The position numbers and the translations under genes are program-made. This document shows positions 15,684-50,844 of a DNA stretch of 64,000 nt, one piece after another. The stretch's first letter is position 1. Every line of letters begins with the position of its first letter. Origin of the DNA: a phage; the sequence record PZ379075.1, one strand, 5' to 3'. The notes beneath the pieces are model-generated. The model was not told the DNA's origin and did no database searches. It was given only the letters and a program-made list of their open reading frames with translations.

Positions 15684-16046
15684 ATGAATACACGTCCCAT
15701 CAAGGGCAACGTTAATATTGAAACTCTGAACAAGGTTGCATCAAACCTCGGTGGTATGTCCAACGAAGAGCTTGAGCAAGAACTTGCTTGGATTGCAAAT
15801 GGTATCAAGGTTGCTAAAGGTAAGATTGCTCGTGAGCAAAGTAACATGAAAGCTCATAAGTATCTAATCCATCGTGCAAACGTGTTACCGGATCGGGTTG
15901 TACATCTTGCCCGTAAAAACTACGCAGAAGCAAAGAAAGCTCTGGAAGAAGCTGAGTTCCAGAAGCATCAATTTATGAACAACTATCGAAACTTCCGAGA
16001 TATTCTTTATATTCGTAAGTCGATTGAGTTGATTAAAAACCAATAG
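15684..16046 (+). CDS. hypothetical protein (120 aa), helical/charged
   Basis: ORF from track. Confidence 0.5.
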   Translation: MNTRPIKGNVNIETLNKVASNLGGMSNEELEQELAWIANGIKVAKGKIAREQSNMKAHKYLIHRANVLPDRVVHLARKNYAEAKKALEEAEFQKHQFMNNYRNFRDILYIRKSIELIKNQ

Positions 16047-16057
16047 AGGTTGGTATA

Positions 16058-17257
16058 ATGTTTCCAGTAACATTAGAAGATACTGAAGGTAATATTTTAA
16101 CAGTCAACCCTCCTTGTTATGGGTTCCTTCAGCTTCGCAACTATAACGGTGGCGTTGATGAAGACGATGAAGAGTATGATGACTACTTCGACCCTAACAT
16201 GTATGAGGCAACTCATGGATGGAATATGCACGTTCGAGTGTGGCATGAAGAAGCTAACGTTCGTAGTGCTGATGGGGAAGAGTTCCTGTTAAGCCGAGAG
16301 ATGGATATGTGTAAAATCAAGCATATCTGGAACTCTGGAACTCATATGAAGATGTTAGGTTTTAGACGTTGGCGTGATGAAAAGCATGTAGCTGAAGCTT
16401 TAAGTTGGTGTTCGTATGAAGATGAAGACACGCCCCCTAAGAACAACATCGAACGTTGGAACGACAAAAACCCTGAGCATCGAACCACACCTCGTGCTGT
16501 ACTGGAAGCTATGGAAGCATTTGTGGACAAAGATCGTCCCTCCTGTTTACGCTGGCACGATAAAGGTTTTATGGGGGTAGCAACTGAGAATATCCCTGCT
16601 GATCGTTGTCTGTTCTATTTGATGTTAGACCGAACCTTCTATTGTGAAGATGAAGAGAGTCAAGTTGAAACCTTCCTCCATAAATGGTTGGTTGAAGGCT
16701 GGACAATCCTTCAGGCTTATGTTTACTCACGAATGGTTAGCACTTACACTAACCTCTTGGGAGAAAAGAAAGCAACTCTGGTTGGTAACGATTGGGATGC
16801 TTGTATCTTCCCAGCGTCGCTATTTACAGTCGGCATGGCTGATAAATACGCTGAAGCATTTCAAGTGCCTTGGCGTCAACAGTCATATAGAGATGGATGC
16901 GGTCATTTCCGTGATGAAGACTTTAAGTGGATTCATTACGAGAATGATGAAACAGCAGAATTACGAGTTAACAACTCAATGTTCTTGCCAGTGATGCACC
17001 CCGATCTAGTAAAAGACGGGTCAGAGACACTTAAAGGTGATAATCTTTTGGTTAACTTTACCCGTCGCGTGTCTAAAAATGAGAAAACAGCTAACAGGTT
17101 AATCTACGGCATTCGTGCCGAGGCTAAAGACCTGTTCAACATCTACAACATCATTCAGCGATTTAGTAGTGGAACTCTGGACCAAAGTTCGGAGTATTCA
17201 GTGATTCCGTCCTCTGAGTGGGATGGTATTATGAGCGGATTATTTTTAGGAAAATAA
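16058..17257 (+). CDS. hypothetical acidic protein (399 aa), first gene of putative amidoligase cassette
   Basis: Long ORF; no motif recognised; linked to cassette only by position. Confidence 0.55.
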   Translation: MFPVTLEDTEGNILTVNPPCYGFLQLRNYNGGVDEDDEEYDDYFDPNMYEATHGWNMHVRVWHEEANVRSADGEEFLLSREMDMCKIKHIWNSGTHMKMLGFRRWRDEKHVAEALSWCSYEDEDTPPKNNIERWNDKNPEHRTTPRAVLEAMEAFVDKDRPSCLRWHDKGFMGVATENIPADRCLFYLMLDRTFYCEDEESQVETFLHKWLVEGWTILQAYVYSRMVSTYTNLLGEKKATLVGNDWDACIFPASLFTVGMADKYAEAFQVPWRQQSYRDGCGHFRDEDFKWIHYENDETAELRVNNSMFLPVMHPDLVKDGSETLKGDNLLVNFTRRVSKNEKTANRLIYGIRAEAKDLFNIYNIIQRFSSGTLDQSSEYSVIPSSEWDGIMSGLFLGK

Positions 17258-17267
17258 AAGGTTAGTT

Positions 17268-18239
17268 ATGTCAATCTCCACAACGATCGTACCTCTTAAT
17301 CTTCAACAGGATTTAGGGGAACAGAAGTTCTTAGGTCGTGGGTGCTTCGGTATCCACAACTACATGCAAGGTCAAGTCGTATATGATGTTAATGACGAAT
17401 GTGTAATGGAAGATGGGCGCCATAAACGCTTCAACCGTGACATTAACTTGCAATTGGAGATGTTGAATTACTGGACCCACTCTTTTCATGGTCATGTTCC
17501 ATCTGATATTGAAAAGAACTTGATTGAAACAGCAGACATTATGAATTCTATGTCTTGCTATCGTGATGTATTTACTATCACTTCAGCGAACAGTGTTGCT
17601 GTCAATCTTCGTGAGCATCCAGCAGATCAGATCTTCACAGGACTTATGCTCTTCCGTAGTATTCTGGAAGGGCAATATCGTGGAATGGATTTCCTAGCAG
17701 AAGGAATTGAAGACAGGGAAGAGTGGCTGAAGCGTAAACGCATCGGCATCGCTCTAGTGTTAGCTGGGTTGGGTCGTGACTTCTTCGGTGGGTGGTCTCA
17801 ACGAGGAAGAGCCAATGGGAGTAGCGAGAGCACCTCTATTGTTATTAACAACAATATGTCAGCAGCAGCTTTCCTTCCTTTGGTTGTAGACTCTGATGAA
17901 TATACGAAGCAAGTATGGGTTCAAAACCCCTTCGGTGTTGGCGACAATGAGAATGGTTATGTTCGTAACCACAACCAAGATGCCTTACGAAGATTTGCTC
18001 GTGCTAAAGATCAAGACCCAGACGAGTATGAAACAATGTCAGAGTGGTTAAGACTCTGGTCCAACTGTTATGGTCACAAACGTGAAGCAATAGACGACAA
18101 GTTGGGAAACATTACGGTACAAAACTTTACATCCCGACTGATTCAAAGAACTGGAGCAGATTCCGGTCTTACTCTTGAAGAAGTTGGTAACACAATCTCA
18201 TCTCTCTTTTCTGAACTAGTGGAGTATTACAATGACTAA
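17268..18239 (+). CDS. hypothetical protein (323 aa) in amidoligase cassette
   Basis: Long ORF; no motif recognised. Confidence 0.55.
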   Translation: MSISTTIVPLNLQQDLGEQKFLGRGCFGIHNYMQGQVVYDVNDECVMEDGRHKRFNRDINLQLEMLNYWTHSFHGHVPSDIEKNLIETADIMNSMSCYRDVFTITSANSVAVNLREHPADQIFTGLMLFRSILEGQYRGMDFLAEGIEDREEWLKRKRIGIALVLAGLGRDFFGGWSQRGRANGSSESTSIVINNNMSAAAFLPLVVDSDEYTKQVWVQNPFGVGDNENGYVRNHNQDALRRFARAKDQDPDEYETMSEWLRLWSNCYGHKREAIDDKLGNITVQNFTSRLIQRTGADSGLTLEEVGNTISSLFSELVEYYND

Positions 18240-29321: not shown

Positions 29322-29855
29322 ATGAGTTTACTAGGAAGTATTGAACTGCATGATGTAATTGACAATGGCTATCTGGATGCGGAGCATAAGTATGTTAACG
29401 CTGCTAGTGTGGATATCCGTATTGGTGATACTATCCTTGTTGAAGAACAGGCTGATGGCATCGTTGATATTGATGCGAAAGAGAATCTTCAGTGGAAGGA
29501 AGTAAAGATTCCTGAAGAGGGTTTGGTTATCACTCCGGGTCAGTTCTTCTTGGCTCACTCTATGGAGGAGTTTAATCTTCCAGATAACATCTCAAGTCTG
29601 TTTGTTCTGCGTTCGTCTATGGCTCGTTGTGGTTTGAACCACCTTCACGCCGGTTGGGCAGATGCAGGATTTAATAGTAGTAAGCTGACATTTGAATTCC
29701 ATAACGTAACCAAGCACCACAGCTTACGAGTTCGTGCTGGTATGCGTGTTGGTCAGATGGTTATGTTTGAGCACTCTCATGCAGGGGAACATTCCTACGC
29801 AGTGAAGGGTCGTTATAATAACTCTGAAGGTGTGGTTGCATCTAAAGGTGTGTAA
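29322..29855 (+). CDS. dcd: dCTP deaminase
   Basis: RSSMARCGL...HAGWADAG...GMRVGQMVMF closely parallels bacterial Dcd motifs. Confidence 0.7.
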   Translation: MSLLGSIELHDVIDNGYLDAEHKYVNAASVDIRIGDTILVEEQADGIVDIDAKENLQWKEVKIPEEGLVITPGQFFLAHSMEEFNLPDNISSLFVLRSSMARCGLNHLHAGWADAGFNSSKLTFEFHNVTKHHSLRVRAGMRVGQMVMFEHSHAGEHSYAVKGRYNNSEGVVASKGV

Positions 29856-30053
29856 ATGAAAAAGTGGATTGTTCGTGTACATGATAACACGACTGGAGAG
29901 TTAGTAGCTGTAGATTTTGTTAAGACTCGAGAGCACGCACGTAGGGTCAAAAATCAATACAAGTCTACTTTTAGACTTAATAAGGTTACACTAGGAAAAG
30001 CTATCGTGAATAGTGAAGGTGCTTTTTGTGTCAACAGTAAGGTTTATTACTAA
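29856..30053 (+). CDS. small paralogous protein A (ends KVYY)
   Basis: One of three tandem about 66-aa paralogues with conserved C-terminal K-V-x-Y-Y. Confidence 0.5.
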   Translation: MKKWIVRVHDNTTGELVAVDFVKTREHARRVKNQYKSTFRLNKVTLGKAIVNSEGAFCVNSKVYY

Positions 30054-30262
30054 TGAGACCAATCACTATGAGAAAATTCTGGTTAGCGAAGATTAAGTGG
30101 GCATCAGGTGGTATGACTATGACTGCACTCCCTACTCGTCAACAAGCTCGAGATTTTAAAAAGACTATGCTTACTGGTGACGTGGTTAATAGTATCAGCA
30201 TCCATAAGGCCAAGGAGTATTCTTCTGGTCGTGTTTATATCAGCGGAAAGGTACATTACTAA
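30053..30262 (+). CDS. small paralogous protein B (ends KVHY)
   Basis: See above; coupled starts. Confidence 0.5.
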   Translation: MRPITMRKFWLAKIKWASGGMTMTALPTRQQARDFKKTMLTGDVVNSISIHKAKEYSSGRVYISGKVHY

Positions 30263-30471
30263 TGAAAAAGATGTGGGCTATTCATGTTGTTTGGGATCTT
30301 GAGCAACACATGAGAAAAGATAACATCAAATTGTTTGACACTCGCAAAGAGGCTCGTATTGCTAAGAAACAGTTGAAGACTCTGGGCACAATAGTAAAAA
30401 GCGCTGACATACATCGCTGGTATGAAGACCCTAACACTGGTTCTTTTATGTCTAAAGTAATTTACTACTGA
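30262..30471 (+). CDS. small paralogous protein C (ends KVIYY)
   Basis: See above. Confidence 0.5.
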   Translation: MKKMWAIHVVWDLEQHMRKDNIKLFDTRKEARIAKKQLKTLGTIVKSADIHRWYEDPNTGSFMSKVIYY

Positions 30472-30543
30472 TTGGTAGTAGATATGATAACTCTCAAATG
30501 TATATAGAGTACAATAAGAATTTGTATTTTACAGGAGAGAGTT

Positions 30544-30873
30544 ATGTTAGATTTGAGTAAAGTGGCCCCGCCCACTGAAGAGATTACAAAATCCAAGGTG
30601 ATGCAACAGTTTTATCATCGTGATATGCTTGGTCGCTTTATCAAGAATCGTGATGTTGTTGCTTGGTCTATTGGTAATCAGGGATATCTGTTGAAGGTTC
30701 TTCAGGTTACAGGTTCAACTGCTAAGCGAGTTAAGGTGTATGACCCTGAAATGGGGCGTTCTAAGTCAGTAGACCCACAGAACTGCATCGTAATTACCCA
30801 GCAGGTAATGGATAATATTGCACGTAACGTTGCTAACTCAGTTGAACTTGATGGAGAAAACCCAAATGCATAA
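30544..30873 (+). CDS. hypothetical protein (109 aa)
   Basis: ORF; preceded by AATGTATATAG motif and GGAGAG RBS. Confidence 0.5.
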   Translation: MLDLSKVAPPTEEITKSKVMQQFYHRDMLGRFIKNRDVVAWSIGNQGYLLKVLQVTGSTAKRVKVYDPEMGRSKSVDPQNCIVITQQVMDNIARNVANSVELDGENPNA

Positions 30874-31429
30874 GAATGTTTTTGATTTACCTGAGATTGG
30901 TCGTGACAGCTATAGCATGTTAGACCGGTCCGACCTATCAATCTCTCGCCTTGAAACAATGCAAGGCATGATTAGTGGAAACAGCCTAGAACACATCCTG
31001 AGCTGCTTACAAGCTAACATGGAACTCTTGCATATCAAAGCTAAAAACTACCACTGGAACGTCTCTGGTGCAGGATTTCAGGGTGTTCATGGTATGTTTG
31101 ATGAGCTGGAAGATTACGCACGACAGGTAGGAGATCGTATTGCTGAACGTATGCGTTACCACTGTGTTAAAGTGGATGCTACAGCAGCTAATTATCTTTC
31201 TCATGCTTGGTTCTCAGAGGGGAATGCTGATCTAGACATGGACGGTATGCTCTCTGATATGTGCATGACCTTGATGTGTATTATTGAGAAGATGGATGAG
31301 TTTGATGGTGATTTAGCCTCCTACCCTGTCGATCAGAGTATGCTTCAAGAAATTAATGAAGGTCTTGGCAAGTATTGCTACTTCGTCAAGAGCAACATGT
31401 CCCATTCAAGTGGTGACGTGTCTTACTAA
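30866..31429 (+). CDS. Dps-like ferritin-fold protein
   Basis: KAKNYHWNVSGAGFQGVHGMFDELEDYARQVGDRIAERM matches Dps signature; ATG 30866 overlaps upstream stop. Confidence 0.65.
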   Translation: MHKNVFDLPEIGRDSYSMLDRSDLSISRLETMQGMISGNSLEHILSCLQANMELLHIKAKNYHWNVSGAGFQGVHGMFDELEDYARQVGDRIAERMRYHCVKVDATAANYLSHAWFSEGNADLDMDGMLSDMCMTLMCIIEKMDEFDGDLASYPVDQSMLQEINEGLGKYCYFVKSNMSHSSGDVSY

Positions 31430-31489
31430 AACCTCCGCCCTGTCTCCTAACCCGAGGTGGGGCGAACTTATTTATAAGGATATAGATAT

Positions 31490-31669
31490 ATGTTATCAGC
31501 AATCGTATGGGGTATTTGGGCTATCTTTATCGGTGGTGGTATTTATTGGGCTTCTGGTAAGCTTATTGAAGAAACTCCTGATAAGAAAGGTGAGATTCAA
31601 ACAGCATCAACCATCATGGTTATCGTAGCTGTTGTTATCCCATTCCTGCTTCACCTCCTGACTGCATAA
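31490..31669 (+). CDS. small two-TM membrane protein (59 aa, below track cutoff)
   Basis: Hand translation MLSAIVWGIWAIFIGGG...IMVIVAVVIPFLLHLLTA; AAGGA RBS; track ORF 31356-31628 in other frame judged spurious. Confidence 0.5.
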   Translation: MLSAIVWGIWAIFIGGGIYWASGKLIEETPDKKGEIQTASTIMVIVAVVIPFLLHLLTA

Positions 31670-31677
31670 GGATTTAC

Positions 31678-31953
31678 ATGTCTAAAGTAATTAAGTTTTA
31701 TAGTGATCAGTGTGCTCCATGTAAAGCAATGGCTCCTACCTTTGAGAAGGTTGTTAAGGAGTTTGATGTAGAAGTGGAAGAGATTAACATCCTTGAAGGT
31801 GATGGTCGTGAACAAGCTGTTAAGTATGGTGTACGAAGCATCCCTGCTTTTGTTGTGCCTGACCGTAACAGTGGTGCACACTACAGCCTCTCCGGTATGC
31901 AGACTGAAGCAAACCTGAAAGCATTTTTGGACACAGCCCTGAGAAATAAGTAA
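31678..31953 (+). CDS. thioredoxin/glutaredoxin-like redox protein
   Basis: CxxC active site in FYSDQCAPCKAMAP with thioredoxin-like context. Confidence 0.65.
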   Translation: MSKVIKFYSDQCAPCKAMAPTFEKVVKEFDVEVEEINILEGDGREQAVKYGVRSIPAFVVPDRNSGAHYSLSGMQTEANLKAFLDTALRNK

Positions 31954-31968
31954 TAAGGATATTCACGG

Positions 31969-32625
31969 ATGAATGAACAACTACAAGCAACATTAATCGA
32001 AGCTATGGGAAGTGATCGTAGCGTAGTAAACGCAGCTCGAGTTTCCTTTGGCGTAACCCGTGAAGGTGATTTAAATGAACGTGATGAACGTCTCATCAAC
32101 TTCCTCGCAAGAGAGAAGCATGTTACCCCATTCCGACACCCGCAAGTCAGTTTCCGATGCAAAGCACCTATCGCAATTGCAAGACAGTTGGGCAAGCATC
32201 AGGTTGGATTCTCGTGGAACGAAATGTCCCGGCGGTATAAAGATGGAGCAGTTGAAGTCTTCATCCCTAAAGAGATTTTTGCGAGACCTTCGGACCTCCA
32301 TGCAGGTTCAGGGATTCAACTCATCGACGGAGAGCGAGCTGAAGCATTAATGTTAATTAACGATGCATATGAAGCTTCTCTAGCAGCATATGACAAGTTG
32401 ATTGAGTTTATTGCACCAGAGCAAGCTCGATTTGTTCTTCCTCAGGGGATGATCACTGAGTGGGTGTGGACCGGTTCTTTGTATGGCTGGTTTGAGTTGT
32501 GTCGTCAGCGACTCTCCTCTCACGCTCAATATGAAGTTCGAGTGTTTGCTAAATCTGTAGACGAAGAGATGTCTAAGATCTACCCAATCTCGTGGGCAGC
32601 TCTGAAGAAAACATTGGAGATTTAA
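31969..32625 (+). CDS. thyX: flavin-dependent thymidylate synthase ThyX
   Basis: ARVSFG, FRHPQVSFR and SWNEMSRRY resemble ThyX RHR and SxRY motifs. Confidence 0.65.
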   Translation: MNEQLQATLIEAMGSDRSVVNAARVSFGVTREGDLNERDERLINFLAREKHVTPFRHPQVSFRCKAPIAIARQLGKHQVGFSWNEMSRRYKDGAVEVFIPKEIFARPSDLHAGSGIQLIDGERAEALMLINDAYEASLAAYDKLIEFIAPEQARFVLPQGMITEWVWTGSLYGWFELCRQRLSSHAQYEVRVFAKSVDEEMSKIYPISWAALKKTLEI

Positions 32626-34604: not shown

Positions 34605-34660
34605 ACAGTAACTTATAATGTATACTCCTTAGTGTACACTGATATATTAAGGAGTTCTAA

Positions 34661-40639: not shown

Positions 40640-41052
40640 ATATCCTTTACTTTTTAGCTTTCTTAGGAATAATCTTTTTATCTATTATTCTTGAATTTGG
40701 TTTAAGTAGGTTAGTTAATTATTTAGGTAATAAGTAATTAATATTCTTTTAAATAGAGAATCAAAGTCCCTAGGAGTCCCTACAACCTAAATCAAGGATT
40801 CCTTAATTCTCTATTTTTATCTCGCAGGTGGCTCCTGCCCTTCGGTACTTGCAAGGGATTCTGTGAATTGCCCAATATACAAGCCTGCAATAACTTTATC
40901 AGCTATACAATATATACATTACTAGTGTGTTATATCTACTACCAAAGATACTTATATTATATAGTACTCTTATCGGTATAAGCGTAATGTATACTATACA
41001 TAACCGCTCAAAGAGAGCAACAATCTTTCAAATTAAATAAGGAAATTAAAAT
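40640..41052. promoter_or_regulatory. AT-rich 400-bp intergenic region with 11-bp inverted repeat (40751-40761 / 40806-40816) and TAATGTATACT motif (40988)
   Basis: Direct reading; candidate promoter cluster or replication origin upstream of SSB-like gene. Confidence 0.4.
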
Positions 41053-50261: not shown

Positions 50262-50822
50262 CTAGAATAGATTTATCTTCCCCTCTTCAGGGGTTTGGTC
50301 TGCATATGCACGACCTGTCTCACGACCTGCGATGATAGCAGCAGCAGCCAATGGGTTAGCAACAGTCATACCAATATCACCAGCAACGCCAGCATACTGA
50401 CCTACAGTTTTACCAATCCCATCCTCAATCTTATCCATACGTTCTTTCAGAAGATTCTGAGAGTTCTCTTGGATACGCTTACCATAACTAGTTTGTGCTC
50501 CAGCTAGATTCTCACCAATCTCAACTAAACCACCAATACCTTTAGCAGCACTAGCTGCAATATTTGCACCACCAGATTGAAGAGCATTTGACACACCTTG
50601 AGCAAACTCACCTATAGCACCACGTTCTTCTTGTTGTGGTTGTGCTACTGGCTGTTCCTCAGGAATAGAGCCACCTGCTGCCTTATATTGTTCTCTCATT
50701 TGAGCTTGTTGCTCCGGAGAGGCATTCAGATACGCAGGAGCTTTGGAAGCTTCTTCCCACGGTTTAATGTTAGCCATAACGTCTCCTTTTATAAATAAAA
50801 ATGTCCTACCCCCTATATACAT
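50262..50822 (-). CDS. Gly/Ala-rich virion protein (186 aa), probable N-terminal part of the 1298-aa protein
   Basis: Similar composition to start of downstream ORF; frames differ by one across a G4 run. Confidence 0.5.
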   Translation of the reverse strand: MYIGGRTFLFIKGDVMANIKPWEEASKAPAYLNASPEQQAQMREQYKAAGGSIPEEQPVAQPQQEERGAIGEFAQGVSNALQSGGANIAASAAKGIGGLVEIGENLAGAQTSYGKRIQENSQNLLKERMDKIEDGIGKTVGQYAGVAGDIGMTVANPLAAAAIIAGRETGRAYADQTPEEGKINLF

Positions 50823-50844
50823 TATAGAAGGCAGGACTTAGGTC

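Follow-up and report, generated by a model that had tools for sequence, protein, structure and literature searches.

A Dps-like gene in the genome of a lytic phage raises the question of whether such a phage needs its own iron and peroxide defense once the stress responses of the host are shut off. The gene lies in a stretch of 64,000 nucleotides of phage DNA (sequence record PZ379075.1), referred to here as the window. An earlier note, made from the sequence alone, had suggested that a Dps-like ferritin encoded among nucleotide-metabolism genes could manage iron and oxidative stress during replication of a lytic phage, or protect its DNA. The source phage is phiEco32-like and belongs to the genus Kuravirus, subfamily Gordonclarkvirinae; it is a podophage that infects E. 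coli lytically and has a prolate head of the C3 type, so the lytic lifestyle was called correctly. A 24-kb stretch of the window is 96.5–98.3% identical to the eight best-matching phage records, which include FS2B, Bas90, MN03, and ShigP1.

The gene and its neighborhood

The Dps open reading frame starts with ATG and ends with a TAA at 31427–31429, and the encoded protein has a computed mass of 21.2 kDa and a computed pI of 4.7. The features of the locus are collected in Table 1. Start calls vary across the deposited annotations of this gene, which is 564 nt long in phiEco32, 576 nt in Bas87, and 603 nt in Bas90. A TTG at 30818 was considered as the start and dropped, because the homologues all align from the ATG at 30866 (MH(N/K)N...) and a GGAG at 30853–30856 stands nine nucleotides before that ATG. 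The family alignment and the position of the GGAG favor the ATG at 30866 as the probable start.

Table 1. Features of the Dps locus in the window.
Feature	Coordinates	Strand	Basis or remark
dCTP deaminase	29322..29855	+	PF22769, 3.6e-34
Probable middle promoter of the gp68-Dps operon	30461..30506	+	Sigma70-like pair and phage-sigma motif
gp68 homologue, 109 aa	30544..30873	+	PHROG 10984, no Pfam
Shine-Dalgarno-like GGAGAA	30853..30858	+	Read from sequence, 5' of the Dps ATG
Dps-family CDS, 187 aa	30866..31429	+	Orthologue of phiEco32 gp67 and SU10 CDS67
N-terminal extension, residues 1–40, specific to Kuravirus-type copies	30866..30985	+	Alignment, model
Ferroxidase-center segment, residues 63–96 (end of helix A through helix B)	31052..31153	+	Alignments
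GC-rich hairpin, 11 bp	31436..31464	+	7 nt after the Dps stop, weak T-tract behind
Thioredoxin	31678..31953	+	PF00085, 2.1e-13
ThyX flavin-dependent thymidylate synthase	31969..32625	+	PF02511, 8.5e-44

Pfam matches place the Dps gene between dCTP deaminase on one side and thioredoxin and ThyX on the other, the three neighbors that the earlier note had named. Three tandem, abutting open reading frames of 65–69 residues (29856..30053, 30053..30262, and 30262..30471, all on the + strand) follow dCTP deaminase. All three match PHROG 4939 with E values of about 1e-28 and have ...KV(Y/H/I)Y at the C-terminus. They make up a local triplication in the interval that separates dCTP deaminase from gp68. 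A 59-residue open reading frame at 31490..31669 (+), between Dps and thioredoxin, is the gp66 homologue (PHROG 9296); its two hydrophobic segments give it the appearance of a small membrane protein.

The stop of gp68 overlaps the start of Dps by 8 nt, and a gp68 homologue is also found directly 5' of Dps in phages Privateer, GAP52, and LAh_8. gp68 is present in 131 phage records (Escherichia 92, Aeromonas 11, Proteus 8, Salmonella 7, Cronobacter 6, and Shigella 3), a host profile that is almost exactly that of the Dps of C3 phages. The AlphaFold2 model of gp68 (pLDDT 76) is a small β-barrel of the SH3/Tudor type. Comparison of the model with solved structures returned generic SH3/Tudor/KOW-like matches at E values of at least 0.01, none of them significant. 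gp68 may be a functional partner of Dps.

The protein belongs to the Dps family

The peptide HWNVSGAGFQGVHGMFDELEDYARQVGDRIAERM, which corresponds to residues 63–96 of the protein (nucleotides 31052..31153), had been read in the earlier note as a match to the Dps ferroxidase region. Pfam, sequence matches in the PDB, the predicted fold, and the alignment of the metal ligands all agree with that reading. The HMM search that had been proposed as a check matched PF00210 (Ferritin) above the gathering cutoff (E = 2.7e-7; 31.1 bits against a cutoff of 24.5), over residues 55–109 only. PHROG 3636 matches the protein with E = 3.7e-55. At E ≤ 1, 59 PDB sequences match, and the listed matches are, with one exception, Dps-family chains.

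The best solved relatives are Dps2 of M. smegmatis (MsDps2; PDB 2z90 and 4m35) and the Bacillus proteins Dlp-2 and MrgA (1jig and 2chp), with E values from about 2e-9 to 1e-8 (best 2.3e-9) and 24–27% identity. The MsDps2 match spans nearly the whole four-helix bundle (query residues 51–176), whereas Dlp-2 and MrgA match the N-terminal part (query residues 40–145). All three have their ferroxidase ligands in common with the phage protein and superimpose on its model with Foldseek TM-scores of 0.8–0.9. The phage protein differs from them in having its own acidic N-terminal extension of 40 residues, five cysteines, 8% methionine, and a P-V-D-Q-S motif in place of the pore-lining aspartates of canonical Dps.

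A profile was built from 16 family members and run against 1.84 billion representative proteins. It recovered a small distinct clade of seven proteins at E ≤ 1e-30, which merges gradually into a set of 3349 Dps-like proteins at E ≤ 1e-3. A word-indexed homologue search returned close relatives only, and the link to cellular Dps came from the exhaustive profile search. One matched protein (P0032, 1156 residues, matched in 20 stretches) is the translation of a tandem repeat and was set aside as spurious.

The AlphaFold2 monomer model has a mean pLDDT of 79.8, with most of the core at 85–95. Its helices at residues 41–65, 72–98, 125–150, and 154–176, together with a short BC helix at 107–112 in the long loop, make up the Dps signature. 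Foldseek comparisons with Dps crystal structures (1jig, 2d5k, 2yw6, and 8ff9) gave target-normalized TM-scores of 0.80–0.90 and rmsd values of 1.2–2.5 Å. The intrasubunit di-iron site of the 24-mer ferritins and bacterioferritins, which has two ExxH motifs, was looked for, and a single ExxH (E53–H56) was found. The top sequence and fold matches are all Dps, and none is a Ftn or Bfr. These data establish the gene product as a Dps-family four-helix-bundle protein with a complete and conserved set of ferroxidase ligands. Because the NCBIfam Dps equivalogs gave sub-threshold matches only (34.6 bits against a cutoff of 114 for the enterobacterial NF006975), the protein is a divergent branch of the family rather than an orthologue of the host Dps.

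The ferroxidase center and the iron-entry pore

The ferroxidase center is intact. H63, W64, H75, D79, D90, and E94 align with H51, W52, H63, D67, D78, and E82 of E. coli Dps and with H31, W32, H43, D47, D58, and E62 of Listeria innocua Dps. All four metal ligands are therefore present, along with the adjacent tryptophan and the second-shell aspartate. The earlier note had named missing ferroxidase residues as what would speak against a Dps, and none is missing. The register was confirmed independently by an ungapped match to PDB 1dps (query residues 56–95, chain residues 44–83) and by BLASTP, which gave the same offset. The six residues are invariant across 16 members of the phage family that share 48–96% identity, and also in the distant orthologues of Privateer, 7-11, GAP52, and LAh_8.

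The three-fold, "ferritin-like" iron-entry pore may be less canonical. The pore aspartates D121, D126, and D130 of Listeria Dps correspond to D149, P154, and S158 in the phage protein, so that only one of these three acidic positions keeps its aspartate, by an alignment that has low identity in this region. An invariant P154-V-D156-Q motif stands where Listeria Dps has DDxT, and D156 may substitute for a pore aspartate. Because two of the three pore aspartates are replaced, iron uptake may differ from that of canonical Dps.

Selection and the N-terminal extension

The open reading frame was compared with the 83%-identical copy in Bas87. The values of pN (0.11) and pS (0.71) give a dN/dS of 0.056, and the gene is under strong purifying selection. 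The constraint is relaxed in the first 40 codons, where pN/pS is 0.36 compared to 0.09 in the core bundle. The N-terminal extension encoded by these codons is net acidic, with four Lys or Arg against six Asp or Glu, and contains the motifs MH(N/K)NxFDLP and SxxRL(E/D)xM. A helix is predicted at residues 21–37 with low confidence. The Lys/Arg-rich tail of the E. coli-type DNA-binding Dps was not found in the protein, and the C-terminal 11 residues contain no Lys or Arg.

The composition of the protein is unusual for a Dps. It has cysteines at positions 47, 100, 133, 138, and 171, and 15 methionines (8%). The Kuravirus-type clade as a whole is rich in cysteine (3–10 per protein, versus 0–2 in canonical Dps) and methionine (5–8%), and an invariant GMLxDMCMTL stretch is located in helix C. 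A thioredoxin gene is two genes downstream. The cysteine and methionine richness hints at additional or different chemistry.

Relatives, distribution, and annotation history

A tblastn search over 50,697 phage records gave about 172 matches at E ≤ 0.01. Full-length copies with at least 80% identity account for 98 of these 172 records and belong to Kuravirus-like phages. The remaining records are C3 podophages of Proteus, Salmonella, Cronobacter, and Aeromonas, a group of Streptomyces phages, and a few others. Dps is thus rare among phages, with most records coming from one lineage. In the C3 prolate podophages, however, it belongs to the core genes, and in every one of them it is a highly constrained, promoter-proximal middle gene.

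The closest named relative is phiEco32 gp67 (phi32_67, YP_001671812.1), which is 99.5% identical to the window protein. In both phiEco32 and SU10 (CDS67) the gene has the same position, between gp68 and gp66/thioredoxin, and nothing of substance is different. The Dps proteins of the Grimontviridae and Lahexavirus C3 podophages (Privateer gp068, 7-11, GAP52, and LAh_8) are 31–42% identical, with the same ligands and the same type of module. They are shorter (146–156 residues) and have short basic N-terminal tails. Their genes are in nucleotide-metabolism modules beside thioredoxin, dCTP deaminase, ThyX, or NrdD/NrdG, often NrdD/NrdG rather than ThyX.

Similarity to the Dps of E. coli (1dps) is recognizable in the ferroxidase block only (phmmer E of about 0.1–0.16). 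The HWN...H...D...AER block aligns without gaps at 39% identity over 41 residues by BLASTP, and the phage protein lacks the Lys-rich N-terminal DNA-binding tail of the E. coli protein. Because the host Dps is similar over the ferroxidase block only, the phage gene represents an old, divergent phage lineage and not a recent capture from the host.

The identification as Dps is correct but was already known. GenBank lists phi32_67 under the product name "DNA binding protein" and adds in a note that it is a "member of the Dps family", a label that dates from 2008. The SU10 paper states that CDS67 "contains a DPS domain", and the Privateer paper names the gene "Dps family protein". Our literature searches found no characterized phage-encoded Dps. 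In many Kuravirus GenBank records, IME267, ES17, vB_EcoP_DE5, CHD5UKE1, YW01, EK5, and EC.W2-6 among them, the homologue is labeled "integrase" or "putative integrase", though it matches the ferritin/Dps family only. This propagated mislabel could wrongly flag lytic candidates for phage therapy as temperate.

Promoter and expression

A sigma70-like TTTACT-16-TATGAT is located at 30461..30488, within the 72-nt gap 5' of gp68. The phage-sigma motif AATGTATATA follows it on the 3' side at 30497..30506 and matches the tAATGTATAtA of phiEco32 and SU10 promoters that are read by the phage sigma factor. The SU10 paper places a sigma70 promoter upstream of CDS68 and reports the tAATGTATAtA motif in middle promoters. 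A promoter in the gap 5' of gp68 and the SU10 placement together indicate that the first middle operon probably opens with gp68 and Dps, in that order. Six peptides of CDS67, covering 35.8% of the protein, were detected by proteomics in the SU10 paper, which assigns the gene to the middle class.

Further copies of the phage-sigma motif, (t)AATGTATA(tA), are found at 34616..34623 (+), 40985..40992 (+), 40911..40920 (−), and 50814..50823 (−). The three + strand copies, counting that at 30497, match the positions given for middle promoters in SU10, one upstream of CDS68, one after PhoH, and one further downstream. The copy at 30497 was scored as overlapping the sigma70-like −35/−10 pair. At the other end of the Dps gene, the hairpin has a free energy of −15.9 kcal/mol, with a z-score of −1.26 against shuffled sequences that is not significant on its own. 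The hairpin is a possible terminator, or an attenuator between Dps and gp66/thioredoxin.

A proposed role in iron and peroxide defense

The two functions put forward in the earlier note, management of iron and oxidative stress or protection of DNA, can reasonably be inferred for a gene of this family and location. We think that the gene probably encodes a functional Dps-type mini-ferritin that would act as the phage's own defense against iron and peroxide during replication. Its most likely form would be a dodecameric cage, active during replication, that detoxifies Fe2+ and H2O2. Twelve subunits assemble into a hollow cage with 23 symmetry in the Dps family, and twelve phage subunits would be expected to do the same. 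The two-fold interfaces would each bind two Fe2+, through H63 and H75 from one subunit and D90 and E94 from its partner. The bound Fe2+ would be oxidized, preferentially by H2O2, and the Fe3+ would be deposited inside the cage. Oxidation and storage would remove both Fenton reagents and prevent formation of hydroxyl radicals.

The SU10 paper describes how phiEco32-type phages redirect the host RNA polymerase via their own sigma factor and an inhibitor of sigma70. With host transcription taken over, the infected cell would mount no OxyR response and would not induce the host Dps, and the phage would therefore supply Dps and thioredoxin itself, alongside its dNTP enzymes. The replicating phage DNA and redox-sensitive nucleotide enzymes would thereby be kept from iron and peroxide damage; the protected enzymes would be ThyX in this phage and the anaerobic NrdD/NrdG in related phages. 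Dps comes second after the first middle promoter, within the module for replication and nucleotide metabolism, and this placement supports the role. A purely cytoplasmic role would leave the detection of Dps in CsCl-purified Privateer virions unexplained, which counts against it. The replaced pore aspartates, the richness in cysteine and methionine, and the scores far below the Dps equivalog cutoffs also count against it.

Other readings were weighed against the same evidence. A modest Pfam score of 31 bits over residues 55–109 only could point to a non-functional relic, or to a chance open reading frame with a motif that is merely Dps-like. This is extremely unlikely, and we regard it as ruled out by conservation and proteomics: the predicted fold matches Dps over the full length, dN/dS is 0.056, full-length copies at 80% identity or more are found in 98 phage records, and peptides of SU10 CDS67 were detected. 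The cage could instead buffer iron or donate it to Fe-dependent nucleotide enzymes of the phage or the host, rather than protect against stress. Dps is always within a nucleotide-metabolism module, and in GAP52, LAh_8, and Privateer it adjoins the anaerobic ribonucleotide reductase NrdD and its activase NrdG. However, no gene for a ribonucleotide reductase or an obvious Fe-S enzyme is present within about 16 kb on either side of Dps in Bas90 or among the surrounding open reading frames of the window. ThyX is a flavoenzyme and not an iron enzyme, and we know of no precedent for a Dps that serves as a dedicated iron donor. These points make the donor function improbable.

The idea that the cage binds phage DNA non-specifically is rather unlikely for the window protein. 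Such a cage would shield or condense the DNA, and it might aid packaging of the genome into the greatly elongated prolate head or accompany the virion. The "DNA binding protein" annotation, the place of Dps in the core gene set shared by all C3 prolate podophages, and its detection by mass spectrometry in CsCl-purified Privateer virions are consistent with it. So are the short Lys/Arg-rich N-terminal tails of the Privateer, 7-11, GAP52, and LAh_8 orthologues, which resemble the tail of E. coli Dps, and the Dps folds in BFVD proteins of uncultured phages named "Prohead protease", which would be fusions to capsid-interior proteins if they do contain protease domains, as named. E. coli Dps binds DNA via its Lys-rich N-terminal tail, and many Dps proteins do not bind DNA. 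The window protein is acidic (pI 4.7), with four Lys or Arg against six Asp or Glu in its extension and no basic residue in its C-terminal tail, and its gene is located in the middle replication module, not in the late structural module. The text of the SU10 cryo-EM study, which included mass spectrometry of gel bands, does not contain "Dps", "gp67", or "DNA-binding". The SU10 sample of 2014 also held polymerase, thioredoxin, PhoH, and sigma factor, which are carried-over non-structural proteins. Association with the SU10 virion was dropped as evidence, since the 2014 sample contains many non-structural proteins and the 2022 structural study is silent on gp67.

The "DNA-binding" label, which the window protein inherits from the name of its family, is unsupported because of the pI of 4.7 and the acidic 40-residue extension. 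Direct protection of DNA by binding is the less supported of the two functions suggested in the earlier note, because the protein has no basic tail. DNA binding may differ between lineages, because the Dps proteins of Privateer, 7-11, GAP52, and LAh_8 do carry Lys/Arg-rich tails.

Iron and peroxide defense during replication remains the reading that we prefer, and the virion data bear on one further idea. The Privateer paper reports detection of Dps by mass spectrometry in virions purified on CsCl step gradients and equilibrium gradients. A BFVD fold search returned Dps folds in several proteins of uncultured phages, and some of these (A0A6J7XDU5, A0A6J7WPK9, and A0A6J7WIS1; 333–763 residues) are named "Prohead protease". 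The metagenomic protein P0125 combines Dps with DUF6321, a C-terminal domain common to many PHROGs of unknown function. The proteins named Prohead protease and the DUF6321 protein hint that some phages load Dps into their capsids; for the phage of the window they are leads to such a role rather than evidence of it.

The Dps of the C3 podophages could be tied to the capsid or to the packaged DNA as an encapsulin-like cargo, possibly working with gp68, with the extension or the basic tails mediating the contact. The hints of capsid association are the Privateer virion mass spectrometry, the "Prohead protease" Dps folds, and the restriction of gp68 plus Dps to the C3 morphotype. We consider this very unlikely. 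The encapsulin cargo proteins EncFtn and Flp also pair an iron oxidizer of the ferritin superfamily with an HK97-fold shell, and the parallel to the phage Dps is conceptual only. EncFtn has two helices, forms decamers, and bears a targeting peptide, whereas the phage Dps is a full bundle in which no targeting peptide was identified. If the idea were true, a genuine viral HK97 shell would carry the phage Dps as its ferritin-like cargo, mirroring the encapsulins.

Observations in the early region

Two single-base differences from Bas90 were noted in the early region of the window. A deletion near 22631 (+) shortens A6 to A5 in a GlmS-like glutamine amidotransferase gene (20845..22827) and introduces a premature stop. 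A second deletion near 23751 (+), in the run CCCCTCTC, splits an ATP-grasp/RimK-like gene into open reading frames at 23318..23773 and 23800..24510. The deletions are either sequencing errors or real frameshifts.

The same region, from about 16000 to 25500 on the + strand, encodes a COOH-NH2 ligase (18232..19038, PF14395) and an amidoligase (19662..20765, PF12224). The glutamine amidotransferase, the ATP-grasp enzyme, and a γ-glutamyl cyclotransferase (25017..25436, PF06094) are also encoded there. Together they form a peptide-ligase-like module. The BASEL paper speculates on DNA modification in the subfamily Gordonclarkvirinae.
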